From the NCBI GenBank assembly GCA_049520815.1, contig JBEKPL010000002.1:14654-78653 (forward strand): 64,000 nucleotides of DNA, read 5' to 3'. Below, piece by piece: positions 42,382 to 60,050 of the stretch. Both the position numbers and the translations under genes were made by a program. Position 1 is the stretch's first letter. Each line of letters opens with the position of its first letter. Origin of the DNA: Candidatus Limnocylindrales bacterium. GTDB taxonomy: Bacteria > Chloroflexota > Limnocylindria > Limnocylindrales > CSP1-4. The notes beneath the pieces were generated by a model. It worked only from the letters and a program-made list of their open reading frames with translations. It was not told the DNA's origin and made no database searches.

Positions 42382-42393
42382 GCACCCGCCGGG

Positions 42394-43905
42394 TCACGCC
42401 TGGCAGGCCGCCGGCACGACCCCCGGGAGCCCGTAGTAGCTGCTCTCCGAGCCGAACAACGCCACCGACAGGTTGGCGACCAGCGCCATGTCCAGCCGGC
42501 TGGTCCACGTCCCGCCCGTGGTGGACGTGTCCGGATGGTAGCTGTAGGGCGGACCAAGCACGCAGTTGGATATCGAGGTCACGTGCTGGGCGGCCGACAC
42601 GTAGTCGCGGGCGGTCGCGAGCGGAAAGTCCGTGGCGACGACCTTGCCGGCCAGCGAGATAAGGTTGCCCACATTCGGCAGGATGGACGGACTCGCCACC
42701 TTCCGCTCCAGAGCCACGAGCAGGGCCTGCTGGCGAGCTGCTCGCTGGTAATCACTGCCGCCCGCTCCTTCACGAGAGCGGACGTACAGCATGGCCAAAG
42801 AGCCGTTGAGGTGGACGCGGCCGACGCCCATCTCTATTCCGGTCGACGGGTCGTCGATCGCCCGCTCGTTGTAGATGTCCACGCCCCCGATCGCGTTGAT
42901 CATGCTGGCGAGGCCTCCCAGGTCGAGTGCGGCGTAGTAGTCGATGGGCAGGCCGACCAGGAAACTGACCTCCTTCTTCAGGGTGATCATCGGCGGATCC
43001 GGAGACTTGTAGTAGCCGTTGATCAGCTTGTTGACCAGCTCATTGAGCTTCAACCCGGACTCGGCCCAGCCGCCGTAGTACAGGTCGAAGGCGGAGGTGT
43101 CGCGGGGCACGCTGATCATGGTCACCTTGCCCGTCCCGGTGTCCATGCTCACAACCATCATGGTATCCGTGATGGCGTTTTGGAAGGCTCGGCCGGGCAT
43201 GTTGTCCAGGCCCACGACCAGGAAGGTGATCCGATTGGGATTCTTCGTTCGAGCGGGCGTAGGGTCGGCGCTCCGCTCGACGGTGGCTGCGGGATGGAAC
43301 GCCGACAGGTCGAGCGGCGTGGGAATCGGGGTGGCGGTGGGGCTGGGGCTGGGGGAGGACGAGGTGCCCGCAGCGAAGATGTTGTTGTTGGCCGCGATGT
43401 CGAGATCCGCCTGATGTACGAGCCATGCGTCGGCGGCCACGTAGGTGTGCATCCCGACGATGGCCACGAGGAGGGCGGCAACGACACCCGCCTCCAGGGG
43501 GCGGAAGCGGAAGCGCCGGGCCCGCGGCGCGGAGAGGAAGGCGTGGGCGGTCGACGCGACGCGCAAGGCCCCGGCCAGGACGACGAGAACGGCCACGGTC
43601 AGGGCATAGCTCTCGTCGAGCATGCTCGCGCCAACCCACCACAGCCCGTGGGTGAGCTGGACCACGACCCACACCGTCAGAACCAGGGCTGGCAGAGCGA
43701 AGATGGCGGCCCAGGCCCGGCGACCCAGGAACAGCTGGCCCAGGCCCGGCCAGAGGAAGGACAGAGCGGCCGCGATCAGGGGCGAGCGACGACGTACCGC
43801 CGGCTCAGCGGTGGAGTCGGGCTCGTGGGCGGAGCCGGGCTCGCCGGCCACCGGCTCAGCGCCGAAGCCGGCCTCCTCTGCGGTGTCTCGAGTCTCGTTC
43901 CCCAT
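42394..43905 (-). CDS. LCP (LytR-CpsA-Psr) family glycopolymer-to-peptidoglycan ligase
   Basis: N-terminal TM helices followed by 'RITFLVVGLDNMPGR..TDTMMVVSMDTGTGKVTMISVPRDT'. Confidence 0.85.
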   Translation of the reverse strand: MGNETRDTAEEAGFGAEPVAGEPGSAHEPDSTAEPAVRRRSPLIAAALSFLWPGLGQLFLGRRAWAAIFALPALVLTVWVVVQLTHGLWWVGASMLDESYALTVAVLVVLAGALRVASTAHAFLSAPRARRFRFRPLEAGVVAALLVAIVGMHTYVAADAWLVHQADLDIAANNNIFAAGTSSSPSPSPTATPIPTPLDLSAFHPAATVERSADPTPARTKNPNRITFLVVGLDNMPGRAFQNAITDTMMVVSMDTGTGKVTMISVPRDTSAFDLYYGGWAESGLKLNELVNKLINGYYKSPDPPMITLKKEVSFLVGLPIDYYAALDLGGLASMINAIGGVDIYNERAIDDPSTGIEMGVGRVHLNGSLAMLYVRSREGAGGSDYQRAARQQALLVALERKVASPSILPNVGNLISLAGKVVATDFPLATARDYVSAAQHVTSISNCVLGPPYSYHPDTSTTGGTWTSRLDMALVANLSVALFGSESSYYGLPGVVPAACQA

Positions 43906-43981
43906 TTGGATCCAAGTCTAGGGCCGTCGACGCGGCCCGCGTGGCCCGCCATGCCGGGTCTTCGCAGTGGCAGTCGCGCCG

Positions 43982-44731
43982 CTACTGCATCACCAGGCCG
44001 CCGTCGACCGCCAGAACCTGGCCGGTGATGTAGCTCGCCTCATCGGAAGCGAGGAAGGTGACCGTCGCAGCTATCTCCTCGGGCGTCCCGAAGCGTCCAA
44101 GCGGGGTCGCTGCCTTGATCTGGTCGGTCAGGGCCGCGGGCAGGTCCTTGGTCAGCTCGGTCACGACGAAACCGGGAGCCACGGCGTTGCAGGTGATGCC
44201 GCGCGAGGCCACCTCGCGGGCCGTCGCCTTGGTCAGGCCGATCAGGCCGGCCTTGGACGACGAGTAGTTGGCCTGGCCCATCTGGCCGGCCTGGCCCGAA
44301 ACGCTGGACATGTTGATGATCCGGCCGGCATGGGCCTTGAGCATCGGGCGGACGGCGGCCTTGATCATGTAGAAGGCGCCGAAGAGATTGACCTCCAGGA
44401 CCTTGCGCCAGTCGTCGATGGGCATCCGCATGATCAGGTCGTCGCGGGTGATGCCGGCGTTGTTGACCAGGATGTCGATCTTGCCGAAGGCACCGACAAC
44501 CGTCGCGACGGCCTTCACGCAGGCATCGGGGTCCGTCACGTCCGCGGCGATGTAGATGGCTCGACGGCCGAGGGCTTTGATCTCGGCGACTGTCGCCTCG
44601 GCCACTTCCGGACGGCCGATGTCGACGAAGGCGACGTCGGCGCCCTGGCGGGCGAGGTTCAGGCAGATGGCCTTGCCGAGACCTCGTGCGCCGCCCGTGA
44701 CGAGCGCGGATTTGCCGGTCAGGTCGATCAT
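43982..44731 (-). CDS. fabG: 3-oxoacyl-[ACP] reductase
   Basis: Motifs 'GKSALVTGGARGLGKAI', 'NNAG' and 'YSSSKAG'. ATG 44731 is preceded by GAAGGGAG. The ORF extension to 44983 is rejected. Confidence 0.9.
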   Translation of the reverse strand: MIDLTGKSALVTGGARGLGKAICLNLARQGADVAFVDIGRPEVAEATVAEIKALGRRAIYIAADVTDPDACVKAVATVVGAFGKIDILVNNAGITRDDLIMRMPIDDWRKVLEVNLFGAFYMIKAAVRPMLKAHAGRIINMSSVSGQAGQMGQANYSSSKAGLIGLTKATAREVASRGITCNAVAPGFVVTELTKDLPAALTDQIKAATPLGRFGTPEEIAATVTFLASDEASYITGQVLAVDGGLVMQ

Positions 44732-44798
44732 GATTGGCTCCCTTCTGCTCGAATTCCGGTCCGGCTGGTTCGAGCCCCCTCCAGCGTGGGCCTCTACC

Positions 44799-46049
44799 TC
44801 ATCGCTTGGGCCGGGTAGCGGCGGCGCCGCTGCCGGCGCCGGAGACCGCTGCGTCGGAGATCGTCGTGGTTGAGCGGGCGTCCAGCCTGGGGCGGCGGCC
44901 GTTGCCGGCCGCGTTGCCGGCGGCCTTCGCAGGCTCTTCGAGGAGCCACTCCAGGGCCGGTGGGAACGGATTGGCCGGCTCAATGCCGGGGTCCAAGATG
45001 CGGATATCCTGCGGTCGAATGTGCTCCGAGCGCAGACGATCTGCAGGGTCGGCGGTCCACTCCAGCGCCACGGCGCCGGCGGTGCCGCCCGCGCCGAATG
45101 CGACGAGCACGACTCGGTCGCCCTTGTGGATGCGCCCTTCCGCCACAGCTTCAGACAGGGCGATCGGAACCGATGCGGCGGAGGTGTTGCCGTAGCGGTC
45201 GATGTTCAGGAGGACCTTCTCCATCGGGAAACCGAGCGCTTTGGCGGTCGCCTCGATGATTCGGGAGTTGGCCTGGTGCGGCACGACGAGATCGACGTCT
45301 TCGAGAGCCAGACCGGCGTTCTCCAGAGCTCGAAGGGTAGTCGCGGTCAGCTTCCGCACCGCCAGCTTGAAGGTCTCCCCGCCCTTCATGCGCATGTAGT
45401 GCTCGCGAGCGGCGACCGTCTCGACCGTACTGGGACGGGCCGAAGCTCCACCCGGGATCCAGATCGAGTACGTGGCGGCAGTGTCAGTGGTCATCTCGAT
45501 GCCGAGGGTTCCGCCAGGCTCATCCGACGCCGAGAGCACGGTCGCACCGGCGCCGTCGCCGAAGAGAACGCAGGTGGCGCGATCGGCGAAGTCGGTACAA
45601 CGGCTCATCGTCTCCGAGCCGATGACCAGCGCATGCTTGCCCAGCCCACTGGCGAGATAGGCGTGGGCCATGGCATGACCGAAGACGTAGCCCGAGCAGG
45701 CCGCTGCCAGATCCATGGCTGCGGCCCGGGTGTTGCCAATGGCCTGCTTGACCAGCACCGCGGCCGAGGGAAGCGGGTAGTCCGGAGTGAGCGTGCCTAC
45801 GAGGATCAGGTCGATGTCGTCGGGTTGCAGACCGGCAGTGGCGATGGCCCGCAGGCCCGCTATTGCGCCCATGCTGGCTGTGGTCTCGTCGGGACCGGCG
45901 ATGCGGCGCTCGCGAATGCCGGTGCGACTGGCGATCCACTCGTCGGAGGTCTCGACCATCTTCTCGAGATCGGCGTTGCTCAGAACGTAGCGAGGGGTGT
46001 AGGCACCCCACCCGGTCACGCGTACACCGAACGTTGAACGCGACATCAC
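44799..46049 (-). CDS. fabH: 3-oxoacyl-[ACP] synthase III with a ~90-aa C-terminal extension
   Basis: Motifs 'AAACSGYVFG' (Cys), 'PHQANSRII' and 'GNTSAASVP'. The canonical end is at '..AVALEW', and 88 more residues follow it. Confidence 0.88.
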   Translation of the reverse strand: MMSRSTFGVRVTGWGAYTPRYVLSNADLEKMVETSDEWIASRTGIRERRIAGPDETTASMGAIAGLRAIATAGLQPDDIDLILVGTLTPDYPLPSAAVLVKQAIGNTRAAAMDLAAACSGYVFGHAMAHAYLASGLGKHALVIGSETMSRCTDFADRATCVLFGDGAGATVLSASDEPGGTLGIEMTTDTAATYSIWIPGGASARPSTVETVAAREHYMRMKGGETFKLAVRKLTATTLRALENAGLALEDVDLVVPHQANSRIIEATAKALGFPMEKVLLNIDRYGNTSAASVPIALSEAVAEGRIHKGDRVVLVAFGAGGTAGAVALEWTADPADRLRSEHIRPQDIRILDPGIEPANPFPPALEWLLEEPAKAAGNAAGNGRRPRLDARSTTTISDAAVSGAGSGAAATRPKR

Positions 46050-46594
46050 GGTTCGACCTCAATCAGCGGCTGCTTCGCCTTGACCAGCTTTCCTGACTCG
46101 GCGACCACGCGCACGACTCTCCCAGCCTGGTCCGACTTGATCTCGTTGAATAGCTTCATGGCCTCGATCAGGCCGATGACGTCCCCCACCTTGACGTGCT
46201 GTCCGACGCCGGTGTAAGGCGGCGAGGCCGGTGTCGGAGCCGCATAGAAGATGCCCGTCAGCGGCGCCTTCACTACCTTCACCGTCGAAACCGGAGCGGG
46301 GTCGGCCTGAGGGGCCGCCGCCGCGCCGCCGGCCGGATCCGCGCCCGCGGCGGGAGTCACGGCAACGGCCGCTGCCGACGGCGCCAGCGCCGCGGGCTTG
46401 CGCAGGACGATGCCCGTCTCGCCGGCCTCGACTTCCAGCTCGACCAGATCGCTCCGCTCCAGGAGTGCGCCGAGCCGATCGACCAGGCCCAGCAACGCTA
46501 CGGTCTCCTCGGACATGACCGGCTCGCCGGCCTCGGTTCTCTCGGGGTTCGCCCCTGTAGGCAGGCCGGGCGCTTCGTCGTGGCGCTCGCTCAT
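46046..46594 (-). CDS. accB: Biotin carboxyl carrier protein (bona fide, with the EAMK biotinylation motif)
   Basis: Motif 'VGDVIGLIEAMKLFNEIKSD'. ATG 46594 is preceded by GAGGGAGGG. Its stop overlaps the fabH start. Confidence 0.9.
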   Translation of the reverse strand: MSERHDEAPGLPTGANPERTEAGEPVMSEETVALLGLVDRLGALLERSDLVELEVEAGETGIVLRKPAALAPSAAAVAVTPAAGADPAGGAAAAPQADPAPVSTVKVVKAPLTGIFYAAPTPASPPYTGVGQHVKVGDVIGLIEAMKLFNEIKSDQAGRVVRVVAESGKLVKAKQPLIEVEP

Positions 46595-46604
46595 CGTCCC
46601 TCCC

Positions 46605-47870
46605 TCACTCGGCCCAGCGCCGGAAGACCAGGGCGCTGTTCTGGCCGCCGAAGCCGAAGGAATTCGAGACCGCGACATCCATTGCCCGGCGGCGGGCGTG
46701 GTTCGGCGTCAGATCCAGCCCGGCCGCGGCTTCGTCGGGATCGTCGAGGTTGATCGTCGGCGGCACGATCCCGGTTCGAATGCTCATGATCGTGGCGATG
46801 GCCTCGATGGCGCCTGCCGCGCCCATGGTGTGGCCGAACAAGCTCTTGTTGGCGGTCACGCTCACCTGACCGGCCCGCTCGCCGAAGAGCGTCCTGATGG
46901 CTTCGAGCTCGCGCGGATCGCCCTCCGGCGTAGACGTGGCATGGGCGTTCACCATATCCACATCATCTACCGTGAGGCCCGCCTTCTCCAGGGCGCAGCG
47001 AATGGCCCGGACCGCACCCGCGCCCCCAGGCGCCGGGAGAGTGATGTGCGAGGCGTCGGCAGTGGCTCCGTAGCCCACCATCTCCGCCAGCGGCTCCGCC
47101 CCGCGGGCTCGAGCATGATCGAGCGACTCCAGCACCACCACACCGGCGCCTTCGCCGATGACGAAGCCATCACGGCCGCGGTCGAAGGGGCGCGAGGCGC
47201 GCTCGGGCTCGTCGTTGCGAGTGGACAGGGCCCGCATCGCCGCGAACGCACCTATCAGCGCCTCGTGTCCGGGGGCTTCGGCGCCGCCGGCCAGCATCAC
47301 GTCCGCGTCGCCGCGGCGGATGATCTCCCAGGCCTCGCCGATGGCGTGACCGCCTGTCGAGCAGGCGGAGACGACGCTGAAGTTGGGGCCCTGCGGCCCA
47401 AAGACGATGGCGATCACGCCCGCGGCCAGGTTGCTGATGGCCATCGGGATGAGGAAGGGGGACATTCGATCCGGCCCCTTCTCGGCCATGAGCAGGACCT
47501 GGTCGGCCAGGGTTCGAATGCCTCCGATGCCGGTCCCGACCACGACGCCGGTCCGCTCAGCCTCCAGACCCTCGAGTCGCGCTGGGAGCCCGGCCTGGTC
47601 CATTGCCTGGCGGGCCGCCACGAGCGCTAACTGGACGTACCGATCGTTGCGTCGCTGGTCCTTGCGGTCGAGGACCGCGGAGGGGTCGAAATCCTTGACC
47701 TCGGCGGCGATGCGCGTGGTCAGACGCGACGGGTCGAACTGCGTGATCGGGCCGACGCCGGATCGGCCGGCTACCATCGCCTCCCAGGTGGACGGAAGGT
47801 CGAGTCCGAGCGAGGTTACCGCACCCATTCCGGTGACGACGACGCGAGGCTGGCCGTTGGTCGGACTCAT
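46605..47870 (-). CDS. fabF: 3-oxoacyl-[ACP] synthase II
   Basis: Motifs 'RVVVTGMGAVTSLG', 'ACSTGGHAIGEA', 'HATSTPEGD' and 'GHTMGAAG'. ATG 47870 forms an ATGA overlap with the upstream stop. Confidence 0.92.
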   Translation of the reverse strand: MSPTNGQPRVVVTGMGAVTSLGLDLPSTWEAMVAGRSGVGPITQFDPSRLTTRIAAEVKDFDPSAVLDRKDQRRNDRYVQLALVAARQAMDQAGLPARLEGLEAERTGVVVGTGIGGIRTLADQVLLMAEKGPDRMSPFLIPMAISNLAAGVIAIVFGPQGPNFSVVSACSTGGHAIGEAWEIIRRGDADVMLAGGAEAPGHEALIGAFAAMRALSTRNDEPERASRPFDRGRDGFVIGEGAGVVVLESLDHARARGAEPLAEMVGYGATADASHITLPAPGGAGAVRAIRCALEKAGLTVDDVDMVNAHATSTPEGDPRELEAIRTLFGERAGQVSVTANKSLFGHTMGAAGAIEAIATIMSIRTGIVPPTINLDDPDEAAAGLDLTPNHARRRAMDVAVSNSFGFGGQNSALVFRRWAE

Positions 47871-48610
47871 CGGACGAGCTTCCCCGTGCGAATCGTGGCG
47901 GCGCGATACACATCGCCGGGCAGGCCGCGCACCGTGAGGGCGTCCGAGACGGCCATGACGTCGTAGGTCGTCCGGCGGATCTCGGCTTTGATCTGCCCGT
48001 CCTCGATCTCGATCAGCGCCCAGCTGGCCGAGGGATCGCCGTCGAAGACGTACCCGGCACTGCCGTCGTTGACGATGGTCCGCCAGCCGACCTCGCGGAC
48101 CTCCGGCGTGTGAGTATGGCCGCAGACGATGACCTTGGCGTCCGTGCGGCTGACGCGGTCGATGATCACGACCGGATCGAGGTCCGCGGGGAAGCCGTCG
48201 GTCAGCGAACCCGGCGAGGCGTGGCAGAAGAGGATCAGGTCGTCTCCGACCCGCAGCCGTCGCTCCCACGGGAGGCGGCGCAGGTAGTCCACGCCGTCGT
48301 CGCCGATCTGGTCCCTGGCCCAGTCCGCTGCGACCTGGTACGAGTCGGGAGTTCCTTCGATGAACCACGGAAACGCGGCCGTGAAGTCGCCGTCGGCGAC
48401 GGCCACGTCCGCGTTGCCGAGCGTGACGTAGGCGCCGGCTCGCTCGAGCTCGCGGACCAGGGCTAGCGTCCCGACCGGATCCGGTCCGTTGAAGACCAGG
48501 TCCCCGCAGATCGCCACGTAGTCGGGGCGAGCGGCATCGACGGCCTTGCGCACGGCTTCGAGCGCGAGCCGGTTACCGTGGATGTCGGACAGGGCGGCGA
48601 TGCGAGCCAT
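47867..48610 (-). CDS. Metallophosphoesterase (YfcE/MJ0936-like calcineurin-fold phosphodiesterase)
   Basis: Motifs 'ALSDIHGN', 'ICGDLV', 'GNAD' and 'VCGHTH'. Its start overlaps the fabZ stop by 1 nt, and its stop overlaps the fabF start. Confidence 0.8.
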   Translation of the reverse strand: MARIAALSDIHGNRLALEAVRKAVDAARPDYVAICGDLVFNGPDPVGTLALVRELERAGAYVTLGNADVAVADGDFTAAFPWFIEGTPDSYQVAADWARDQIGDDGVDYLRRLPWERRLRVGDDLILFCHASPGSLTDGFPADLDPVVIIDRVSRTDAKVIVCGHTHTPEVREVGWRTIVNDGSAGYVFDGDPSASWALIEIEDGQIKAEIRRTTYDVMAVSDALTVRGLPGDVYRAATIRTGKLVR

Positions 48611-49083
48611 CAGCGCAGAGCGCTCTCGGGGGCGATGATGAAGCTGAGCTTGGCGTCGCAGGCCACGTCCCCGTCGACCGTCGCCACCCCATGACCCCGG
48701 CCGAACTTGCTGCCGAGCCGTTCCATCGTCACTTCCAGCCGGAGCTGGTCGCCCGGCGTGACGATTCTCTTGAAGCGGCACTCGTCTATCGCGGCAAAGA
48801 GTCCGAGCCGATCGCCGAAGCCTGGCTGCTGGGCCACGAACACGCCCATCGTCTGGGCCAGGGCCTCGATCTGGAGCACGCCCGGCATGATCGGCTGACC
48901 CTGGAAGTGGCCCTGGAAGAACCACTCCGTGGCCGTCACGGACTTGAGGCCCACGATCCGCTTGGCCTCCTGGTCGTACTCGACGATGCGATCGACGAGA
49001 AGGAACGGCCAGCGGTGCGGGATGAGCTTCTCGATCTGGCGAGTGGTCAGGATCGGCTCGTTCGTCGCGGCGGTGTCGGTCAC
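48610..49083 (-). CDS. fabZ: 3-hydroxyacyl-[ACP] dehydratase
   Basis: Motifs 'LIPHRWPFLLVDRIVEY' and 'FFQGHFQGQPIMPGVL'. GTG start. Confidence 0.92.
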   Translation of the reverse strand: MTDTAATNEPILTTRQIEKLIPHRWPFLLVDRIVEYDQEAKRIVGLKSVTATEWFFQGHFQGQPIMPGVLQIEALAQTMGVFVAQQPGFGDRLGLFAAIDECRFKRIVTPGDQLRLEVTMERLGSKFGRGHGVATVDGDVACDAKLSFIIAPESALR

Positions 49084-49113
49084 GGGGCGGCTCCTGGTGG
49101 CGTGGGCTGCGGC

Positions 49114-50478
49114 TCAGCGATTGCCGGCGGCGACGAACGGAGCGCTGCCGACGCGGTCGAGCAGGTTCGTCGTCACCTTGCCGTCGATGAAGATCTGATT
49201 GGCGAGGATCGCGCGGTGCAACTCGATGTTGGTCGTGACACCATCGACGAGCAGTTCGCGCAGCGCGGCGTCGCCGCGGGCGATGGCCGACGGCCGATCC
49301 GGAGCCCAGACGGAGAGCTTGCCGAGAAGGGAGTCGTAGTAGGGTGGGATCTCATAGCCCGGATAGAGGTGTGAATCCACTCGAACGCCAGGCCCGCCCG
49401 GGGCGAGGTAGGCATCGACCCGACCGCCCTGCGGCTTGAAGTCCTTGCCCGGATCCTCGGCGAGGATGCGGAACTCGATGGCGTGACCGCGCGAGACGAC
49501 GTCAGCCTGAGTCAGGCCCAAGGGCTCGCCGGCCGCGATCTTGATCTGCAGGGCCACCAGGTCGATGCCGGTACAGAGTTCCGTGATGGGGTGCTCCACC
49601 TGGACGCGGCAGTTGATCTCGATGAAGTACGCGTCGCCCTTGGAGTCGACGAGGAACTCGAGGGTGCCCAGGTTCTCGTAGCCGGCTGCAGCGATAGCCC
49701 GAACGGCACGTTCGGCCAGGTCCTGGCGGGCGGTATCAGAGAGAGCCGGGCTGGGCGTCTCCTCGATGACCTTCTGATGTCGCCGCTGTACCGAGCAGTC
49801 GCGCTCGCCCATGTGGACGGCGTTGCCGAAATGGTCCACGGCCACCTGGATCTCGATGTGGCGGTTGTCGTCGAGGAACTTCTCCATGTACAGCGCGTCG
49901 TCGCCGAAGGCCGCTTTGGCCTCGGAGCGGCTGATCTTGAGAGAGCCCTCCAGCTCGCGCGGCGTCCGCACCAGGCGCATCCCCTTGCCGCCGCCGCCGG
50001 CCGAGGGCTTGATCATGACCGGGTAGCCGATGCGCTCGGCCTCCTCCAGAGCATGAGCCTCATCGCGCAGCATGCCCGAGCCCGGAATGGTGGGCAGGCC
50101 GTGCGACCCGAGCAGCCGGCGAGTGGCCTCCTTGGAAGCGAAGCGCTCGAGAACCTCCGCCGGCGGGCCGATGAACGTCAGGTCGTGGGCTCGAACGACG
50201 TCGGCGAAGCCTTCGTCCTCCGCGAGAAACCCGTAGCCGGGGTGAATGGCGTCGCAACCGGTCACGATCGCGGCGGAGATGACCGCCGGCGCCGACAGGT
50301 AGCTGTGCCTGGCGTCGGCCGGGCCGATGCAGACGGCTTCGTCGGCCAGCTGAGCGGCCAGGCCGTCCCGATCCGCCTCACTGTAGGCCACGACCGCACC
50401 GATGCCGAGCATGCGGCAGGCGCGCAGGATTCGCAGGGCGATCTCGCCGCGGTTCGCGATCAGGACCTTGGTGAACAT
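49114..50478 (-). CDS. accC: Acetyl-CoA carboxylase biotin carboxylase subunit
   Basis: N-terminus 'MFTKVLIANRGEIALRILRACRMLGI' with the ATP-grasp core. Length is 454 aa. Confidence 0.95.
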   Translation of the reverse strand: MFTKVLIANRGEIALRILRACRMLGIGAVVAYSEADRDGLAAQLADEAVCIGPADARHSYLSAPAVISAAIVTGCDAIHPGYGFLAEDEGFADVVRAHDLTFIGPPAEVLERFASKEATRRLLGSHGLPTIPGSGMLRDEAHALEEAERIGYPVMIKPSAGGGGKGMRLVRTPRELEGSLKISRSEAKAAFGDDALYMEKFLDDNRHIEIQVAVDHFGNAVHMGERDCSVQRRHQKVIEETPSPALSDTARQDLAERAVRAIAAAGYENLGTLEFLVDSKGDAYFIEINCRVQVEHPITELCTGIDLVALQIKIAAGEPLGLTQADVVSRGHAIEFRILAEDPGKDFKPQGGRVDAYLAPGGPGVRVDSHLYPGYEIPPYYDSLLGKLSVWAPDRPSAIARGDAALRELLVDGVTTNIELHRAILANQIFIDGKVTTNLLDRVGSAPFVAAGNR

Positions 50479-51122
50479 CAGGCTTTTCCGACGGCGGCCG
50501 GCTGGCGCTCGGCCCTGGGGCCGTCGAGCTTCTCGACCCGTTCAGGCGGCTCGATCAGAACCAGATCCTGACCGTACTCGACTGCCTCGCCGGCATCGGC
50601 CAGGCTCGCTCCGACGAGGCCATCCAGTGGCGCGACCACGTCCTGCTGGACTCCGAGCACGTCGACCCAGCCGATGCGGTCGCCGGCCCGGACGGGCGTC
50701 CCGATCGCTAGATCGCGGCGCGGGTGGTAAATGCCCACGGCCGGAGAAGTTGCCGCAATGCGACCCGGCTCCACCCTGGCTGCCACTTCGTCGTCCTCGT
50801 GCCGCCTGTCTCGGTCTTCGGTCCCCCGCACGTGGCTTACGACTGGCCGTCCCGACGGAAGGCCGTGTCCGGCGTGGATCTCGACCGGACCCCTGGCCGC
50901 CGAGCGGCGGCCCTCTTCGACGCTGGGCGGCCTGCGCAGGCGCGCCTTCCAGCCATTCTGGCGAACCTCTATCTCACCCAATCCGCCGGCGGCGAGCCTG
51001 GCGATCAGAGCCGGCAGGACCTCGTCGGCCAGCCGGCCGATGGCATCGTGATCGCGCTGGATCCGAAGAGCGTGATCCGCATCGGGCCGGCTGACGATGG
51101 CAGTCTTCTCGCGGGCGGGCAT
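50478..51122 (-). CDS. BCCP-like protein lacking the biotinyl-lysine (biotin/lipoyl-attachment-domain paralogue)
   Basis: 'SPAVGIYHP..VRAGDRIGWVDVLGVQQDVVAPLDGLV..YGQDLVLIE' aligns residue by residue with accB 'VGDVIGLIEAMKLFNEIKSDQAGRV', with Gly in place of the biotinyl Lys. A strong GAGGAGG precedes the ATG. Its stop overlaps the accC start. Confidence 0.75.
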   Translation of the reverse strand: MPAREKTAIVSRPDADHALRIQRDHDAIGRLADEVLPALIARLAAGGLGEIEVRQNGWKARLRRPPSVEEGRRSAARGPVEIHAGHGLPSGRPVVSHVRGTEDRDRRHEDDEVAARVEPGRIAATSPAVGIYHPRRDLAIGTPVRAGDRIGWVDVLGVQQDVVAPLDGLVGASLADAGEAVEYGQDLVLIEPPERVEKLDGPRAERQPAAVGKA

Positions 51123-51125
51123 TGC

Positions 51126-52112
51126 CTACACCTCCTCGCGGCCGGACGAACCGCCGCGCCTCGCTCCGGGGAACGCGGGCATGGACGGCCGACCGGTGAG
51201 TAGACCACGTAGCCGATCCGCGATGCCGATCCGCTCCGTGGGAGCGGCCGACCGATCGGCCACGGTGAACGGGCCATAAGCCCGGTATCTCTTGAAGCGA
51301 GCCTCCACCAGCTCGTCGAGCGGCATGCGGCCGAGCGCATCGAGCTGTTCGATCACAGCCTCCTTGATGCGCCTGGCCGTCTCGGCCGGGTCCGTGTGGG
51401 CTCCTTCGCCGGGCTCCGGAATGACCGCGTCCACGATGCCGAGCTCCTGCTGCTCGCCGGCGGTGACCTTCATCGCGACGGCCGCCTGCTGCGATTGCTC
51501 GGCCGAACGCCACAGGATGGTGGCGCAGCCTTCGGGGCTGATGACCGAGTAGATCGAATTCTCGAGAGCCAGCACGACATCGCCGACCGCCAGCCCGAGC
51601 GCACCGCCTGAGCCGCCTTCGCCGGTGATGATCGCCACGATCGGAGTTCGGAGATGGGTCATCAACCCGACCGACTTGGCGATGGCTTCGGCTATGCCGC
51701 GTTCTTCGGCCGCGGCACCCGGGAAGGCCCCCTGGACGTCGACGAAGGTGAGAACCGGCATGGCGTAGCGCTCGGCCAGGTCCATGACGCGCATCGCCTT
51801 GCGATAGCCCTCCGGGTGGGGCAGGCCGAAGTTGCGGCGGATGTTCTCCTCGGTGTCCTGGCCTTTCTGGAAACCGATGACGACGATGCGCCGCCCCGCG
51901 ATCCGAGCCAGGCCCGCCACTACCGCGGAGTCGTCGCCGAAGAGCCGGTCGCCGTGCAGCTCGATGAACTCGTCGGCCATGACCTTGAGCAGCTCGAGCG
52001 TGTGCGGGCGCTTCAGGTTGCGGGCCTGCTGGACGTGGGCCCAGACCGCGGCCGTCACGTCTTCCGCCTCGCCTTCCGCGGCGTGGCCGCGGCCCAGAAG
52101 CCGATCAACCAC
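51126..52112 (-). CDS. accA: Acetyl-CoA carboxylase carboxyltransferase alpha subunit
   Basis: Motifs 'ELHGDRLFGDDSAVVAGLARI..GFQKG', 'GLPHPEGYRKA' and 'IITGEGGSGGAL'. GTG 52112 is preceded by GGAGG. The longer ORF to 52430 is rejected. Confidence 0.9.
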   Translation of the reverse strand: MVDRLLGRGHAAEGEAEDVTAAVWAHVQQARNLKRPHTLELLKVMADEFIELHGDRLFGDDSAVVAGLARIAGRRIVVIGFQKGQDTEENIRRNFGLPHPEGYRKAMRVMDLAERYAMPVLTFVDVQGAFPGAAAEERGIAEAIAKSVGLMTHLRTPIVAIITGEGGSGGALGLAVGDVVLALENSIYSVISPEGCATILWRSAEQSQQAAVAMKVTAGEQQELGIVDAVIPEPGEGAHTDPAETARRIKEAVIEQLDALGRMPLDELVEARFKRYRAYGPFTVADRSAAPTERIGIADRLRGLLTGRPSMPAFPGARRGGSSGREEV

Positions 52113-53079
52113 GGGGGGCCTCCCCGCGAGACCGGCTGGCCTCGCCGTTGCGTGACTCGCCGCTCTCGCCGCCAAGTGCCTCGGTGAGGGCCGAGAGCAA
52201 CGAGCGCGACCTGGGGGCGGGCGCCGCAAGAGGCTCGCCGGCGCCCGCCTCCGGCGGAGCGGCCAGGAACGCGAGCAGGGCGATGATCTCGTCGCGCAGG
52301 CGGGGCCGGGTGACGATCCTGTCCACGAACCCGTGGCTGAACCAGAACTCGGCGCGCTGGTAGCCGGGCGGCAATTCCTCGCCGATAGTCCCGGACGAGA
52401 CGCGGTCGCCGGCGAACTGGATGAGCGCATTCGGCTCGGCGATGTTCACGTCGCCGACCGCGGCGAAGGAGGCGAAGACGCCGCCCGTGGTTGGGTCGGT
52501 CAAGACCGAGATGAACGGCACGCGAGCCGCCCGGAGTCTCTCCACGACGCCCATCGTCTTGACGAGCTGCATGAGCGAGTACGTCCCCTCCTGCATGCGA
52601 GCCCCGCCGGAGGACGAGACGATGATGAGAGGGATGCGCTCCGCCAGGGCGGCCTCGCCGGCCCGCGCCACCTTCTCGCCCACGACCGAGCCCATCGAAC
52701 CGCCGATGAACCCGAAGTCCATGACGCACATCGACACCCGCTTGCCGCCCATGGTGGCCAGGCCCCAAACGGCCGCATCGCGCAGGCCAGTGGCAAGCTG
52801 GGCGGCCATGAGCCGATCCGGATAGGACTTCAGGTCCGTGAAGCCCAGGGCGTCCACCGGCTGCAGATCATCGTCTCTCTCTACGAACGAGCCGCCGTCG
52901 ACGAGCTGCTCGATGCGGGACTTGGCCGAGATCCGGAAGTGATGCCCGCAATGAGGACAGACGCGCAGCGTCTTCTCGAGCTGCTTGTTGAACAGCATCT
53001 CCGCGCAGTCCGGGCACTTGGTCCACAAGTCCGGCCGGTAGGCGTCGCGGCGGGGGCGGAAGGGCAACCTAACCGGCAT
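52105..53079 (-). CDS. accD: Acetyl-CoA carboxylase carboxyltransferase beta subunit
   Basis: Zn-finger 'CPDCAEMLF..CPHCGHH' and 'FGFIGGSMGSVVGEK'. ATG 53079 overlaps the upstream stop by 1 nt. Confidence 0.92.
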   Translation of the reverse strand: MPVRLPFRPRRDAYRPDLWTKCPDCAEMLFNKQLEKTLRVCPHCGHHFRISAKSRIEQLVDGGSFVERDDDLQPVDALGFTDLKSYPDRLMAAQLATGLRDAAVWGLATMGGKRVSMCVMDFGFIGGSMGSVVGEKVARAGEAALAERIPLIIVSSSGGARMQEGTYSLMQLVKTMGVVERLRAARVPFISVLTDPTTGGVFASFAAVGDVNIAEPNALIQFAGDRVSSGTIGEELPPGYQRAEFWFSHGFVDRIVTRPRLRDEIIALLAFLAAPPEAGAGEPLAAPAPRSRSLLSALTEALGGESGESRNGEASRSRGEAPRG

Positions 53080-53699
53080 CAGGACACGACCTCCAGGATT
53101 CCGTCGACGACCCCGGTTCGGCGGCGACCGGACCCCGTGGCACGATTGTGGGCCGCCCGTGCGGCACGGCCCATCCGGCCCGACGCCGGGTGCGAATGGC
53201 GCCAGGCAACGTAGACCGCGCCGATCGAGATCGCGGACGCGACGCCCACGCCGCCGACTATCAGCGGCCGTGACTGGCGCGCGGCCATCTCGGGGAGGCG
53301 GCGCAGCGCCCACGCTGGGGAACCCGCGTCCGGCTCCGTCAGAGCGGTGGCGGGCGGCATGGCCGTGGTCACGGGGCCTTCCCCCGCAGGCGAGCGGCTA
53401 CGGTAAGCGGCCATCGTCCCCGGCGTCGCGGCCGCAGCCTCGGTCTCGGCGACCTCTATGTGGAGGCCGGCCCGGAGCCGCATCGCGCCCGCCGCGAGGC
53501 GGGCGGCGAGCGCCTCCTCGAAGCGGAATGAGGGGTGGACTCGGACCAGATCCGCCCGCAACTCGCGCGCCGCGACGCGTATCTGCGGGTCGATGTCGAC
53601 GTCCACGGGGAATTCCGAGGCGCGCCGCTCGTCGGCGGCCATGAGCTCGTCCAGATACCGCTCAGTGCGCCGCGCGTCCCGCATTCCGCCGCCGAGCAT
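53079..53699 (-). CDS. Hypothetical single-pass membrane protein, putative anti-sigma factor
   Basis: It lies immediately downstream of the ECF sigma and overlaps its stop. There is one TM segment near the C-terminus ('PLIVGGVGVASAISIGAVYVAW'). No HxxxCxxC motif is present, so the function is inferred from position only. Confidence 0.45.
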   Translation of the reverse strand: MLGGGMRDARRTERYLDELMAADERRASEFPVDVDIDPQIRVAARELRADLVRVHPSFRFEEALAARLAAGAMRLRAGLHIEVAETEAAAATPGTMAAYRSRSPAGEGPVTTAMPPATALTEPDAGSPAWALRRLPEMAARQSRPLIVGGVGVASAISIGAVYVAWRHSHPASGRMGRAARAAHNRATGSGRRRTGVVDGILEVVS

Positions 53700-54349
53700 C
53701 AGCTCAGTTGCCCCCGCAGGTCGTTTGCCACGGAGCGCAGGGCACGATGCAGCAGCACCCGAACCGCTCCCTCGGAGCGACCCAGTATGGCCGCGATCTC
53801 GGCCGTCGACATCTCGTCGACGAAGCGGAGGATGACCGCCCGGCGGCGATCCTCCGGCAGGCGTGCGACTGCCTGCCAGGCCGCGCTGCCGGCCTCACGA
53901 GCGGCCGCGGTCTCCGCCACGTCGTCCGGGGCGGAGAGCTCCGCAGCTTCCTCGAGAGGGGTGGCGTGGCGGCGTCGGTCCCGGCGTCGCTCGTTCGCGA
54001 CGATGTTGTGGGCGATGCGGAAGAGCCAGACGCGGAACGTGGAGATGTCCGCGGGGTCCGCCCCGCCTTCGATCGTGACCGAACGCGAGGCAATGAAGGC
54101 GTCGACGCGCTCCTCGAAGCGGGGCAGGCCGGCCAGGGCCTGCATGAAGACACGCTCGCTCGCGTCTTCCGCGGCATGGTGGTCCCGGAGCTCGTAGTAC
54201 GCGTAGCTATACACCTGGGCCAGGTACTTCCTATACAGGGCATCGAAGCGAGTTGGATCGCGCCGGGCCGCCTCTACCAGGCCGCGGTCGCGGTCCAGTC
54301 GGGCGGGACGGGTGCCCTCCTGCGCTCTACTCAACACAAGCCGGCTCAA
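53699..54349 (-). CDS. ECF-type RNA polymerase sigma-70 family factor
   Basis: Region 2 'FDALYRKYLAQVYSYAYYEL..AEDASERVF..FRVWLFRIAHNIVANERRR'. Region 4 'LPEDRRRAVILRFVDEMSTAEIAAILGRSEGAVRVLLHRALR'. The start is uncertain (TTG 54349 or GTG 54337), and the ORF is open to 54430. Confidence 0.8.
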   Translation of the reverse strand: MSRLVLSRAQEGTRPARLDRDRGLVEAARRDPTRFDALYRKYLAQVYSYAYYELRDHHAAEDASERVFMQALAGLPRFEERVDAFIASRSVTIEGGADPADISTFRVWLFRIAHNIVANERRRDRRRHATPLEEAAELSAPDDVAETAAAREAGSAAWQAVARLPEDRRRAVILRFVDEMSTAEIAAILGRSEGAVRVLLHRALRSVANDLRGQLS

Positions 54350-54353
54350 TTCG

Positions 54354-55166
54354 TTACACCCCCGCCGTCGATGCGAGCCAGGCGTGGGCGACGTCCCCCG
54401 CGAGAATCTCCCGCTCGACGCCCGGCGCATCTGGGTCCTCGATCAACAGCGCCCCCGACGCCCCATCCACGCCGACCGCGCGAACCGACTCGCTCGAGCC
54501 ATCGGGCAGCTCCAACCTGACCATCCGATCCGTGGTCGCCTGGCGATCGTGCCAGCCCGCCACGTCGAAATGCCCGTCGCGCAGGGCCAGCACGCGCGGC
54601 TCCAGCCGAAGCAGGAACGCGGTCAGCAACTCGTCGGAGTCGATCGAGCGTCCCCGCGAGGCTTCGCGCAGGCTCGTCATCGAGCCCGCCAGCTCCGCCG
54701 GGAACCGTTCGCGCGGCCAGTCCGCGTTCATGCCGATCCCGACCACGGCCTGGACGGCCGCCGTGCCCACGCCCTCGCTCTCGCCCAGAACCCCGCCCAA
54801 CTTGCGCACGCCGGCGTCCCCTGCCACGACGATGTCGTTGGGCCATTTGAGGCGGAGCACGCCGATGGGCAGCCCGGCCACTTCCTCGGCGGCGTCGGCC
54901 ATGGCCAGAGCCACGACCGCACTGAGGCGCCACAGCCGGTCGGGCGGCAGGTAGCTCGGGCGGAAGCCGAGCGACACCAGCAGGGCGGCGCCGCCCGGCG
55001 CGCTCCAGGTTCGGCCCAAGCGCCCCCGCCCGGCCGTCTGCTCGTCGGCGACGGCCACACAGACCTCGGGCGTTCCTCCGGTCATCCAGTTCCGAACGAT
55101 GTCGTTGGTCGAGGGGACCGACCGGAAACGCTCGTGTCGCGAGAAGAACGCTGCGTTCGTCGTCAC
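54354..55166 (-). CDS. birA: Biotin-[acetyl-CoA-carboxylase] ligase (group I, no HTH domain)
   Basis: Motifs 'VADEQTAGRGRLGRTWSAPGG' and 'LKWPNDI'. The GTG start overlaps the lysC stop (GTGA). Confidence 0.9.
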   Translation of the reverse strand: MTTNAAFFSRHERFRSVPSTNDIVRNWMTGGTPEVCVAVADEQTAGRGRLGRTWSAPGGAALLVSLGFRPSYLPPDRLWRLSAVVALAMADAAEEVAGLPIGVLRLKWPNDIVVAGDAGVRKLGGVLGESEGVGTAAVQAVVGIGMNADWPRERFPAELAGSMTSLREASRGRSIDSDELLTAFLLRLEPRVLALRDGHFDVAGWHDRQATTDRMVRLELPDGSSESVRAVGVDGASGALLIEDPDAPGVEREILAGDVAHAWLASTAGV

Positions 55167-56470
55167 GCGCCCGACTTCGGGGTCCCGCCGGATCCCCCAC
55201 CGGCCTCGGCGGCCACCTCGCCCCCGAGCATCGGCTCCGGCTCCTCGAGAGCGAATGCCTTGTGCAATGCCCGAACGGCGGTCTCGACCTGATCCTCGGC
55301 GATCATGCAGGTGATCCGGATCTCCGATGTCGAGATGATCTCGATGTTCACTCCGGCTTCGGCCAGCGCGGCGAACATGCGCGAGGCGTAGCCCGGGGCG
55401 TTCTGGATGCCGGCTCCCACGATCGAGACCTTGGCCATCGCCGAGTCGGTCGTCATCTCGCGAAAGCCGAGCTCACGAACGATCGGCTCGAGGATACGCT
55501 TGGTCTTCGCCAGGTCGCCTCGAGTGATGGTGAAGCTCAGGTCCGTCGTGCCGTGGTGGCCGACGTTCTGGACGATCGTGTCGACGTTGATGCCGGCCTC
55601 GGCCAGGGGCGCGAATACGGCGTGAGCGACGCCAGGCCGGTCCGGGACCTCAACGAGGGTCACCTTGGCCACGTTGCGGTCGTGGGCCAGCCCGCGAACC
55701 TTGTTGCGCTGCTCCACGAACAGGTCCTCCTTGATAAGCGTGCCGGGGACGTCCTCGAACGAGCTCAGCACCTCGATTACGACGTCGTTGACCCAGCCGA
55801 GCTCGACGGCCCGGACCTGCACCACCTGTGCGCCCTGGTGCGCGAGTTCCATCATCTCCTCGTAGGAGACGACCGGCAGCTGGCGAGCCTCGGGCACGAG
55901 ACGCGGGTCGGCCGTGTAGATGCCTCGGACGTCGGTAAAGATCTGGCAGCGATCGGCTTCGAGCGCGGCCGCCAGCGCGACCGCCGTGGTGTCCGAGCCG
56001 CCACGGCCCAGCGTGGTGATCTCGGACAGGTGCGGATCTCGCACGCTCTGGCCCTGGAAGCCGGCGACGATGACGACTCGACCCGCCTCGTTCTCGCTGA
56101 CGATTCGCTTGGTGTCTATGCCGGCGATGCGGGCCTTGCCGTAGTTGCCGTCTGTGGTGATACCCGCCTGAGCGCCGGACAAAGCGATCGCCGGCACGCC
56201 CAGTGCGTGCAGGGCCATCGACACGAGCGTCGCGCTCTGGTGCTCGCCTGTCGCGAGGAGCATGTCCAGCTCGCGCGGATCCGGTTCGTCAGTGATCGCG
56301 CCGGCCAGGGCGAGCAGCTCGTCGGTGGTATCGCCCATCGCCGAGACGACGACGACGAGGTCGCAGCCGGTCGCCCGCTCGCGGGCGATGCGCGCCGCAA
56401 CGCGACGGATCCGGTCGGCGTTGGCGACGGACGAGCCACCGAACTTCTGAACGACGAGGGGTTTGGACAT
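55163..56470 (-). CDS. lysC: Aspartate kinase
   Basis: 'MSKPLVVQKFGGSSVANADRIRRVA' with C-terminal ACT repeats. ATG 56470; the ORF extension to 56566 is rejected. Confidence 0.93.
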   Translation of the reverse strand: MSKPLVVQKFGGSSVANADRIRRVAARIARERATGCDLVVVVSAMGDTTDELLALAGAITDEPDPRELDMLLATGEHQSATLVSMALHALGVPAIALSGAQAGITTDGNYGKARIAGIDTKRIVSENEAGRVVIVAGFQGQSVRDPHLSEITTLGRGGSDTTAVALAAALEADRCQIFTDVRGIYTADPRLVPEARQLPVVSYEEMMELAHQGAQVVQVRAVELGWVNDVVIEVLSSFEDVPGTLIKEDLFVEQRNKVRGLAHDRNVAKVTLVEVPDRPGVAHAVFAPLAEAGINVDTIVQNVGHHGTTDLSFTITRGDLAKTKRILEPIVRELGFREMTTDSAMAKVSIVGAGIQNAPGYASRMFAALAEAGVNIEIISTSEIRITCMIAEDQVETAVRALHKAFALEEPEPMLGGEVAAEAGGGSGGTPKSGA

Positions 56471-56477
56471 GGCGGGC

Positions 56478-56483
56478 ATTCTA
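56478..56483 (-). promoter_or_regulatory. Candidate -10 box TAGAAT placed 7 nt before the lysC ATG (leaderless-type arrangement)
   Basis: The minus strand reads 'gggctgcTAGAATgcccgccATGtcc'. No Shine-Dalgarno is present. Confidence 0.3.
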
Positions 56484-56771
56484 GCAGCCCGAGGCGGCCC
56501 TTCTCGACACCCCGGGGCGCAGCCGGCGGGACTCCTCAATGGCCCGGAAGCGCATCGGCGCTTCATCGCGGCTCACGGGGCGAAGTGGGCCATCAGCCGT
56601 CCTGCCGCGCCAGACCGCGCCGAGCAGCGGGCCACGGCGAGCCGTTACCTCCGCCGGCCAGAGTCTTGACCGCGACGCCATGCCTCAGCTGTGCGACCAT
56701 TCCCGGACGCGGCGCCCTTCACGACGAGGCTCCGCGACGCGGCGAGGCTCGAGACGGTCACCGGAGGCACG

Positions 56772-58103: not shown

Positions 58104-59266
58104 TGTTCGGACGAGGGAAGGGGAGGAAGGGGCCCGTCGCCAACCAGCTGAGGGGTGAGGCCAAGCCCAACACACTGAGCTGGGTCGCGACGGACGCCGA
58201 GACCCGTGAGGCGGAGCTCGCGTACGACGAGCTCGCCGAAGATCAGGGGCTCGAAGAAGACCTGGAGGACGAGGCGGACGATCGAACGCCCGCCCAGCGC
58301 CGGGCCGACCTGCAGGCGGAACTCGATCGTCAGGCCGAGGAGTTCGGGCTCACCGGTTCGAACCCGACGGCGATCTACGGTCCGAACGGGGAGGACGTGG
58401 AGGCGGTCCTCGAGGCGCTGTCGGGCATCGACACGGACCGGGCGGAGCAGCTCGCAGATGCGTGGGTGGCCGGCGACGCGACCGAGCGCGAAGTCCTGGA
58501 GCGTGACCTGCTGCGTCGCAGCCGCCTCGGGACGCACAGTTTCGAGCTGACGGCAGCGGAGGACGCGGTCGCGGCCTGGCTCAACGCCCAGACGCCCGAG
58601 GACGATGCCGATGCCGCTCTTTGGAGCCTGGTGGCGGATGCCGCCCGCGGAGCAGTCGACGCGCTGATCCTGGACGAAGAACTGGACGACGCCGACTTCG
58701 GCCTGCTCTACGGTCCGTGGGCGGACGTCATGGACGCCGACGAAGAGAACGGCGCGGCCGAAGCCGTGGGAAGCGGGGCAACGCAGGAGGACCCGGCGCG
58801 AGGCCCCGAGGGATCCCCGGACGAGCCGGACGGGGAGTTCGGACCCAATACGGAGCTGGTCCGGCAGTTCCTCGTGAAGCTCGGCGAGCTGACTCCCGAA
58901 CGTATCGGGGAGTTGACCGCCTTCTGGAACGGGCAATCGAAGTCGGACCTGCGGCAGGCGCATCGGGCCATGCAGGAGTTGGCCAAGGAGGACGAGACCT
59001 GGCGAGAGCAGGTCAGGGCGGCACAGGAGCAGATCACGACCTGGGCCAACGGCCCTCACGAGATCCGGCACGGCGGTGGCCTTCGACGGCCCTCGAGCGA
59101 GGTCGAGGCCAGGCTGGCCGCGCTTCCTCCCGTCACCGATGCGGTCTCGGCGCTGGTGCTGGCCGACCTGCTCGACCGGGAGGATGCGGAGACGCTCTAT
59201 GCCGCCTGGGAAGCGGCGGTCGGCGAGCCGACGCTTCCGGCGTTCGAGGACGACGGGACCGCCTGA
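58100..59266 (+). CDS. Acidic protein of unknown function, tandem paralogue with two copies of the same module
   Basis: ATGA overlap with the upstream gene. Modules are at aa 93-207 ('YGPNGE..LYGPW') and aa 247-370 ('FGPNTE..LTPERIGEL..LRQAHRAM..WREQVRAAQE..LYAAW'). Confidence 0.75.
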   Translation: MMFGRGKGRKGPVANQLRGEAKPNTLSWVATDAETREAELAYDELAEDQGLEEDLEDEADDRTPAQRRADLQAELDRQAEEFGLTGSNPTAIYGPNGEDVEAVLEALSGIDTDRAEQLADAWVAGDATEREVLERDLLRRSRLGTHSFELTAAEDAVAAWLNAQTPEDDADAALWSLVADAARGAVDALILDEELDDADFGLLYGPWADVMDADEENGAAEAVGSGATQEDPARGPEGSPDEPDGEFGPNTELVRQFLVKLGELTPERIGELTAFWNGQSKSDLRQAHRAMQELAKEDETWREQVRAAQEQITTWANGPHEIRHGGGLRRPSSEVEARLAALPPVTDAVSALVLADLLDREDAETLYAAWEAAVGEPTLPAFEDDGTA

Positions 59267-59994: not shown

Positions 59995-60050
59995 GCGCTG
60001 CCGGCGGGCCTGCGAACGGCCGCCTGCTTGCTCCCGAGTTCCGCCGCTCT

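Follow-up and report, generated by a model that had tools for sequence, protein, structure and literature searches.

What is an extracytoplasmic function (ECF) sigma factor doing in the middle of a lipid synthesis operon? This question is raised by a 64,000-nucleotide stretch of DNA from a Candidatus Limnocylindrales bacterium of the phylum Chloroflexota (GenBank assembly GCA_049520815.1, contig JBEKPL010000002.1, positions 14,654 to 78,653). The whole stretch is called the window here, and its numbering is used throughout unless another locus is named. Between positions 43982 and 56470, Pfam and NCBIfam assign 14 genes on the minus strand, from lysC to fabG (Table 1). A preliminary description of the window, made from the letters alone, had identified all 14 correctly but had counted thirteen in its title. 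All four catalytic and carrier subunits of acetyl-CoA carboxylase (ACC) are encoded in the run: AccA, the Zn-ribbon protein AccD, AccC, and AccB, which carries the MK motif. They are accompanied by genes for type II fatty acid synthesis (FAS II), by lysC and birA, by a second protein resembling the biotin carboxyl carrier protein (BCCP), as well as by a sigma factor gene followed by the gene of a putative anti-sigma factor (the membrane partner). Judging from gene order and sequence comparison, the 14-gene lysC-fabG operon is conserved across the class Candidatus Limnocylindria. Its stable core, as these comparisons delimit it, is composed of the ECF sigma factor, the membrane partner, accD, accA, a BCCP gene with a Lys-to-Gly replacement, and accC, followed by fabZ and fabF.

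Is this gene order a peculiarity of one assembly? A genome scan anchored on AccD, and thus unbiased as to the sigma factor, gave 18 loci, 17 of which belong to metagenome-assembled genomes (MAGs) of Chloroflexota, several of them Candidatus Limnocylindrales. The full 14-gene order was found in every contig that was long enough, in at least 12 species-level MAG genomes, with accD identities of 62-89%. A metagenome scan with an alignment of the sigma factor gave 80 further loci. Wherever the sigma identity is 54% or higher, the order is the same as far as the contig reaches, with birA before the sigma gene, which is followed, where the contig is long enough, by the partner gene and accD. The comparison of the birA-sigma-accD junction among relatives, which the preliminary description had proposed as a check, excluded misassembly by the synteny in independent MAGs and contigs. 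That the run is an artefact of assembly or a one-off order due to chance has a negligible probability: no supporting point was found, and the identical order recurs over this range of accD divergence in independent MAGs and in metagenome contigs from many studies.

Some lineages have a rearranged locus. In the locus L018, the order is thrC, thrB, birA, a reverse-strand gene, sigma, partner, and accD. The preliminary description had regarded birA as a further link in the unit. This is true of most lineages, where birA is adjacent to the sigma gene, but in L018 it is split off by the reverse-strand gene. It appears from these gene orders that birA is less tightly bound to the ACC module than the sigma pair is. 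The loci L040 and L046 are arranged as birA, sigma, partner, accD, accA, a Gly-type BCCP gene, fabD, accC, and fabZ. Their sigma factors are 44-48% identical to that of the window, and the named relatives of the L046 protein are Limnocylindria. Their partner is a membrane protein of 123-124 residues which has an RFEE motif in common with the window protein (hhalign E = 6e-5), and the motif of their BCCP-like protein is VEMLGV. In L046, fabF directly follows fabZ, with no match to a phosphoesterase (11619-11663 of that locus). The L040 contig stops within fabZ, and the absence of the metallophosphoesterase (MPE) gene from this type of locus is therefore known from L046 alone. Around the core, accB, fabH, fabG, and the phosphoesterase gene were seen in Limnocylindrales-type loci. 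Since sigma, partner, and accD stay together in L018, L040, and L046 while lysC, birA, fabD, and the MPE gene vary, the sigma pair belongs more firmly to the ACC module than these genes do.

The genes of the run are also tied by their stop and start codons. The lysC/birA junction is a GTGA overlap, the MPE/fabF junction is an ATGA overlap, and 1-nt overlaps of the TGATG type were found at the sigma/partner, partner/accD, BCCP-like/accC, and fabZ/MPE junctions. The accD and accA genes overlap by 8 nt, as they do in orthologous loci. The accB gene most likely starts at position 46594, 10 nt past fabF, and the widest gap of the run is the 67-nt spacer between fabH and fabG. Upon recomputation, all junctions came out exactly as first described except accB/fabH, where the reported ATGA is in fact GTGATG, which allows either a GTGA overlap or a 1-nt overlap. 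Among 19 scorable loci, the partner stop codon and the accD start codon overlap by 1 nt in 15 and are separated by gaps of 2-18 nt in the other four; the sigma stop codon and the partner start codon overlap by 1 or 4 nt in 16. Three loci (L009, L015, and L017) were left out of these counts. Their accA, accC, fabF, and fabH frames are broken, as seen from split tblastn matches, and the breaks are likely to be sequencing or assembly frameshifts. Thus, the physical and translational tie of the sigma pair to accD, which had been pointed out from the window alone, is borne out, and no part of the locus is more stable across the class. This stability argues for a functional connection with malonyl-CoA and fatty acid synthesis.

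The gene directly upstream of accC, in the ancestral position of accB, does not encode an ordinary BCCP. Its product aligns with BCCP over the full length, with an N-terminal helix like the one that binds biotin carboxylase, a linker, and a biotinyl domain. However, the biotinylation motif EAMKM is replaced by DVLGV in the window protein, so that the lysine is a glycine, and the BCCP model TIGR00531 gives 20 bits against a cutoff of 115. The C-terminal domain was predicted by AlphaFold with a pLDDT above 90 and has the biotinyl fold: the top Foldseek match is 1bdo (TM-score of 0.79), and the scores to E. coli and Pyrococcus BCCP are 0.79-0.90 relative to the target. Glycine takes the place of the lysine in each of the 15 orthologues from these loci, in all 147 aligned representatives (taken from the best 150 of 241 clusters at 50% identity, E < 1e-10), and in 240 of the 240 close homologues listed, which are of the window type and the L046 type. 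The named members come from Limnocylindria or Chloroflexota, and annotation pipelines call them "biotin carboxyl carrier protein". The true accB, whose product has the motif EAMKL with the lysine in the alignment, lies between fabF and fabH. Thus, the sequence and the predicted fold identify the BCCP-like protein as a non-biotinylatable full-length BCCP paralogue, a candidate bacterial analogue of plant BADC.

The sigma factor is an ECF (group IV) sigma factor by its domains and by TIGR02937, which scores above its cutoff, and its PDB matches are ECF sigma factors only. It could not be assigned to a named equivalog or subfamily (BldN, SigW, SigM, or RpoE), every specific NCBIfam model being far below its cutoff; the best one is the BldN family, with 103 bits against a cutoff of 206. 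The main text of the ECF re-classification paper does not mention carboxylase, lipid, or Chloroflexi. The N-terminal extension of the sigma factor is conserved, and in the Limnocylindrales proteins a variable stretch of about 12-25 residues is inserted between the regions 2.2 and 2.3. The sigma gene starts with TTG at position 54349, 4 nt past the birA stop codon. Only TTG, GTG, or ATG was found at this start among orthologues, with TAG at the same position in the rearranged L018, and the following codons vary synonymously. An 8-mer that contains the TAA stop codon of birA, GGTGTAAC (54351-54358, minus strand), is kept in all genome loci, and the sigma start codon comes 4-5 nt after it. It is kept even in L018 (about 6860-6867 of that locus), where it is non-coding, and it resembles the -35 element of ECF promoters. 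A block of the form TGTAAC...GTGTT at the birA/sigma junction was considered as an autoregulatory ECF promoter and set aside, since the sigma start codon sits between the two elements and the bases downstream vary as coding sequence does.

The gene directly downstream of the sigma gene encodes a protein with a single hydrophobic segment (residues 146-164), which is the layout of an anti-sigma factor. The label is putative and is based on gene position, size, and topology. The protein contains no Cys and is thus not a zinc-binding anti-sigma factor; neither an HxxxCxxC zinc motif nor similarity to a known anti-sigma domain was found in it. It has 689 database homologues, of which all the named ones are "hypothetical" and the few assigned to an organism come from Limnocylindrales. 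In the orthologue alignments, the cytoplasmic motif HPSFRFEE is invariant (R53, HPSF, F60, L64, and L68), the linker between the motif region and the membrane helix is variable, and the helix itself, RPLIVGGVGVASAAISIGAVYVAWR, is rich in invariant Gly, Ala, Ser, and Trp residues. Most of the invariant columns fall in the helix and in the HPSFRFEE motif. Beyond the helix there is a basic tail of 0-40 residues, with almost none in divergent orthologues. The preliminary description had spoken of envelope-signal sensing by this pair. This cannot be maintained for an extracytoplasmic sensor domain, as at most about 40 residues follow the single helix.

How is the run transcribed? In the region from 42000 to 60000, TCGAGA-18-TGCTAGAAT is the sole sigma-70-like site, and 7 nt separate its end from the ATG codon of lysC. 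Its extended -10 element and the start codon (TGnTAGAAT, 7-9 nt, ATG) are kept in 11 of 11 orthologous loci. Since the -10 element is so close to the ATG codon, the lysC transcript would be leaderless or nearly so. As these elements suggest, transcription of the run most likely starts at this single promoter, an extended -10 site of the housekeeping type, and yields a lysC message without a leader. No conserved -10 element or terminator was found in the intergenic spacers of the run, and the only conserved element of the fabG spacer is a Shine-Dalgarno sequence, without a -10 element. A terminator scan gave a single minus-strand match inside the run, within fabZ, and the total number of sites was no higher than in shuffled sequence. 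An Rfam scan of the window gave no lysine riboswitch and no other RNA family, and no tRNA genes were found. A scan of synonymous-site conservation for embedded promoters gave a signal dominated by codon bias at two-fold degenerate codons. The genes upstream of lysC are on the other strand, and the LytR-CpsA-Psr (LCP) gene downstream of fabG (42394-43905, minus strand) has its own -10 element near the ATG codon in the window and in other loci. Together with the fabG spacer, these features delimit the unit as lysC to fabG. The same spacing of a TAnnnT -10 element 6-9 nt before a start codon was seen at lysC (TAGAAT, 7 nt), at the LCP gene (TAGACT, 9 nt; 43906-43925), and at the sigma gene of L018 (TAGACT, 6 nt before GTG; about 6868-6883 of that locus). 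This suggests, as far as promoter spacing can indicate, that leaderless mRNAs are common in Limnocylindria.

From these observations, I lean towards the explanation that a single conserved lysC-fabG operon carries a sigma/partner pair and a biotin-less BCCP that control lipid supply; it is somewhat better than an even bet. The overlapping stop and start codons would let the sigma factor, the partner, and the carboxyltransferase be made in fixed proportion. The three-helix cytoplasmic part of the partner would hold the sigma factor at the membrane. Since the partner has no outside domain, its membrane helix is the proposed sensor or proteolysis target: the conserved Gly/Ala/Ser-rich helix would read the state of the bilayer as a signal, or would be acted on by intramembrane proteolysis. 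The freed sigma factor might then adjust lipid or envelope genes, as sigma-W of B. subtilis and SigX of P. aeruginosa do. The biotin-less BCCP, encoded directly before accC, might bind biotin carboxylase and tune the activity or assembly of ACC, as plant BADC does. A more far-reaching proposal, which is tentative and rather doubtful, is that the operon contains a self-contained control layer for ACC, parallel to that of the plant plastid, made of the biotin-less BCCP acting on AccC and an anti-sigma factor without ectodomain whose helix senses the bilayer or is cleaved within it. By analogy with plants, the biotin-less BCCP of this control layer may compete with AccB on biotin carboxylase or scaffold it there. 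Lipid status may feed back both on transcription, through the released sigma factor, and on ACC activity, and the membrane protein may alternate between two partners, the sigma factor and the co-translated carboxyltransferase.

Several observations weigh against the control of lipid supply by this operon. Its one clear promoter is of the housekeeping type, and a promoter of the ECF type was found neither ahead of the operon nor within it. A search for AAC-N16/17-CGT at conserved positions gave two matches, both of which lie in conserved peptides (NVAKVTLV and NDGSAGYV) and were rejected. The proposed mechanism does not account for the conserved GGTGTAAC at the birA stop codon. In most lineages the unit includes lysC, which has no obvious lipid link, and co-transcription alone is thus no proof of shared function. 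Sigma factors of 40% identity or less generally have no lipid genes nearby. Most of these points fit a different account, in which the sigma pair is a passenger in a compact genome, merely co-transcribed with housekeeping genes at a steady basal level, with a regulon and a signal unrelated to ACC and FAS II; lysC already shows that functionally unrelated genes can sit in the run. I regard this account as unlikely, although not very unlikely. Against it stand the sigma-partner-accD junction, which alone survives in every rearrangement seen, and the frequent 1-nt overlap of the partner gene with accD. In addition, more distant sigma factors of the same branch (38-44% identical; L044 and L045) have a fabH-like KAS III (3-oxoacyl-ACP synthase III) gene about 400 nt downstream (L044, 5758-8123; L045, 6025-7883). 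In L044, a small protein whose C-terminus forms a membrane helix is encoded in the gap, and the genes flanking this sigma/small protein/fabH-like trio are on the other strand. The small protein was tried as a partner homologue and rejected, because the hhalign match is not significant (E = 0.023, probability of 2%); the two have the architecture alone in common. The claim that the sigma factor ties sensing to malonyl-CoA and fatty acid supply is accordingly to be divided: a real and conserved physical link exists, but regulation of the acc and fab genes by the sigma factor is unsupported, no ECF-type promoter having been found.

The partner is the other point at which the control of lipid supply by the sigma pair is open to objection. 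The family has no Pfam, NCBIfam, or PDB match, by sequence or by profile. The basic tail after the helix makes the topology ambiguous. AlphaFold, given an alignment of 33 sequences, predicted three N-terminal helices (5-27, 38-51, and 60-76) with low confidence (pLDDT of 53.6), and Foldseek found no match for this model. Is the partner an anti-sigma factor at all? It might instead be a tether or regulator that is associated with ACC and anchors the carboxyltransferase at the membrane, like plant CTI, the sigma factor being regulated otherwise. Plants dock the alpha-carboxyltransferase to the envelope via small membrane proteins (PMC7712654), and a tether would fit a protein that resembles no anti-sigma domain, lacks a sensory ectodomain, and is almost always translationally coupled to accD. 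However, the partner gene always comes directly after the sigma gene, mostly with the 1- or 4-nt overlap given above, which is the canonical layout of sigma and anti-sigma genes. The three predicted N-terminal helices span about 75 residues and fit the size of a known anti-sigma domain (PMC6101532). Moreover, L044 has a protein of the same architecture after a related sigma factor without accD, with the reservation that this homology is not significant. On balance, a tether seems improbable.

It is known that ECF sigma factors control fatty acid genes elsewhere: P. aeruginosa SigX acts on acc and fab genes, and B. subtilis has a sigma-W promoter inside fabHa (PMC3875570). The Limnocylindria locus resembles SigX and the sigma-W/RsiW system with its fabHa-fabF target in that an ECF sigma factor is tied to fatty acid genes and membrane properties (PMC3875570). 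In contrast to these systems, whose sigma genes lie elsewhere with their own promoters, the Limnocylindria sigma factor is encoded inside the ACC/FAS operon and coupled to accD. Sigma-W and SigX act through their own promoters, whereas the cognate promoter of the Limnocylindria sigma factor was not found at the operon. RsiW has an extracytoplasmic domain for signal-dependent proteolysis, and the Limnocylindria partner has no such domain. The BldN/RsbN pair of Streptomyces is another likeness. The BldN family is the best sigma model, and the partner crosses the membrane once, has three helices predicted at its N-terminus, and is without relatives among anti-sigma factors, as RsbN has a three-helix anti-sigma domain without sequence relatives (PMC6101532). 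However, with a score of half the cutoff, the sigma factor is not a BldN equivalog. The outside domain of RsbN has 272 residues against 0-40 in the partner, which has no similarity to any PDB chain, and the context of BldN/RsbN is development, while that of the Limnocylindria pair is lipid synthesis.

The BCCP-like protein can be compared with the BADC proteins of plants, inhibitors of ACCase that are homologous to BCCP and carry no biotin (bioRxiv 10.1101/634550; PMC12706156). In both cases, the BCCP fold is kept, the biotinylated Lys is lost, and a functional BCCP is present alongside in a heteromeric ACC. The Limnocylindria protein differs in being bacterial and, as far as seen, confined to Limnocylindria; the likeness is one of definition, drawn from sequence. 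Its gene, unlike that of plant BADC, takes the place directly upstream of accC that ancestrally belongs to accB. The E. coli accBC operon likewise has a BCCP-type gene immediately upstream of accC, and all four ACC subunits are present in both organisms. In Limnocylindria, however, the gene before accC is the Lys-less paralogue, the real accB is between fabF and fabH, and the four ACC subunit genes are joined with birA and five FAS II genes in one operon. What is new is the presence of a sigma factor and its putative anti-sigma factor as a pair inside an ACC/FAS operon, coupled to accD across a class, together with a partner family lacking an ectodomain and a bacterial BADC-like protein.

Table 1. 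Genes of the lysC-fabG unit and its promoter in the window, in the order of transcription
Feature	Position	Strand	Basis of assignment
Housekeeping-type promoter: TCGAGA, 18-nt spacer, TG-n-TAGAAT (extended -10)	56478..56507	-	sigma-70-like scan
lysC, aspartokinase, first gene of the unit	55163..56470	-	Pfam AA_kinase 2.1e-46 and ACT domains
birA, biotin-protein ligase, without repressor helix-turn-helix domain	54354..55166	-	TIGR00121 121.6 bits (cutoff 83.1); BPL_LplA_LipB and BPL_C
ECF (group IV) sigma factor, 216 aa, TTG start	53699..54349	-	Sigma70_r2 and r4_2; TIGR02937 81.9 bits (cutoff 42.9)
Putative anti-sigma factor (membrane partner), 206 aa, new family	53079..53699	-	position and topology; without family match
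accD, carboxyltransferase beta subunit	52105..53079	-	TIGR00515 341 bits (cutoff 317); Zn_ribbon_ACC
accA, carboxyltransferase alpha subunit, GTG start	51126..52112	-	NF004344 373.6 bits (cutoff 357)
BCCP-like paralogue, non-biotinylatable, 214 aa	50478..51122	-	alignment to E. coli BCCP; faint BCCP similarity
accC, biotin carboxylase	49114..50478	-	Biotin_carb_N, CPSase_L_D2, Biotin_carb_C
fabZ, 3-hydroxyacyl-ACP dehydratase	48610..49083	-	FabA-like domain 1.3e-32
Metallophosphoesterase (MPE), YfcE-like	47867..48610	-	Metallophos_2 1.1e-19; TIGR00040 53 bits, just below cutoff 56
fabF, KAS II	46605..47870	-	ketoacyl-synt N- and C-terminal domains
accB, functional BCCP, motif EAMKL	46046..46594	-	Biotin_lipoyl 3.9e-14; TIGR00531 105 bits
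fabH, KAS III	44799..46049	-	NF006829 400 bits (residues 8-331 of 416)
fabG, 3-oxoacyl-ACP reductase, end of the unit	43982..44731	-	TIGR01830 316.6 bits (cutoff 297.75)

No fabD, acpP, or enoyl-ACP reductase gene was found in the 14-gene run. The preliminary description had reported all three as missing from the run, in agreement with this result, and the absence of the DSL-type motif of acyl carrier protein (ACP) now extends to the entire window: neither this motif nor the GHSxGE motif of FabD has a match anywhere in the 64 kb, the enoyl-ACP reductase having been screened in the run only. A regulator of the FapR, FadR, or FasR type is not evident at the locus. The MPE gene overlaps both of its neighbours, fabZ and fabF, and the best PDB match of its product is 3rqz, an uncharacterised protein. 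The fabZ/MPE/fabF arrangement is kept in Limnocylindrales-type loci, and the MPE gene is absent in the sister-lineage locus L046. A function resembling that of an ACP phosphodiesterase can be no more than guessed for an MPE in a fab operon. FabH continues past the KAS III fold with a C-terminal extension of about 55-85 residues (44799-45050, minus strand), only the first half of which is conserved among orthologues.

Upstream of lysC, and divergent from it, are two tandem plus-strand paralogues (56691-58103 and 58100-59266) of 470 and 388 residues, without a Pfam family. They are very acidic, with repeated FGPN, YGPW, and LTPE motifs, and these two acidic proteins explain the strong A-over-T skew at 56-60 kb. 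A 751-residue open reading frame (ORF) on the minus strand (57122-59377) was considered as an upstream member of the operon and rejected, since the codon-position GC and the protein-like translations favour the two plus-strand genes. The tblastn matches to this ORF in other loci are probably antisense echoes. Further upstream are a frame for a ThrH-like HAD phosphatase (59600-59994, plus strand) and genes for threonine synthase (PALP; 60126-61241, minus strand) and homoserine dehydrogenase (61242-62777, minus strand). With the thr genes adjoining, lysC stands at the edge of an aspartate-family cluster. On the other side, an LCP cell-wall ligase gene in the same direction as fabG holds this place in several loci, and in the window a convergent DUF3048 gene (41182-42381, plus strand) closes the neighbourhood. 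The G+C content of the window is 62-72%, with 0.62-0.65 at 22000-36000 and 0.66-0.72 elsewhere. Genes for a GHMP kinase and a SIS-domain protein lie inside the segment of lower G+C content, and the gene at 19743-21002, just ahead of it, encodes a glycosyltransferase. This segment may be a surface-polysaccharide region.

Outside the model Proteobacteria and Firmicutes, little is known of how bacteria control the committed step of lipid synthesis. The class-wide operon offers three candidate regulators of this step, namely the sigma factor, the putative anti-sigma factor, and the decoy-like BCCP, in an abundant uncultured lineage of soil, peat, and freshwater. The BCCP family with the Lys-to-Gly replacement, which is now mis-annotated as functional BCCP, would correspond in bacteria to plant BADC, which is targeted in order to raise oil yield. 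The putative anti-sigma factor with its conserved helix and no ectodomain could represent sensing within the membrane, as opposed to the usual extracytoplasmic sensing.

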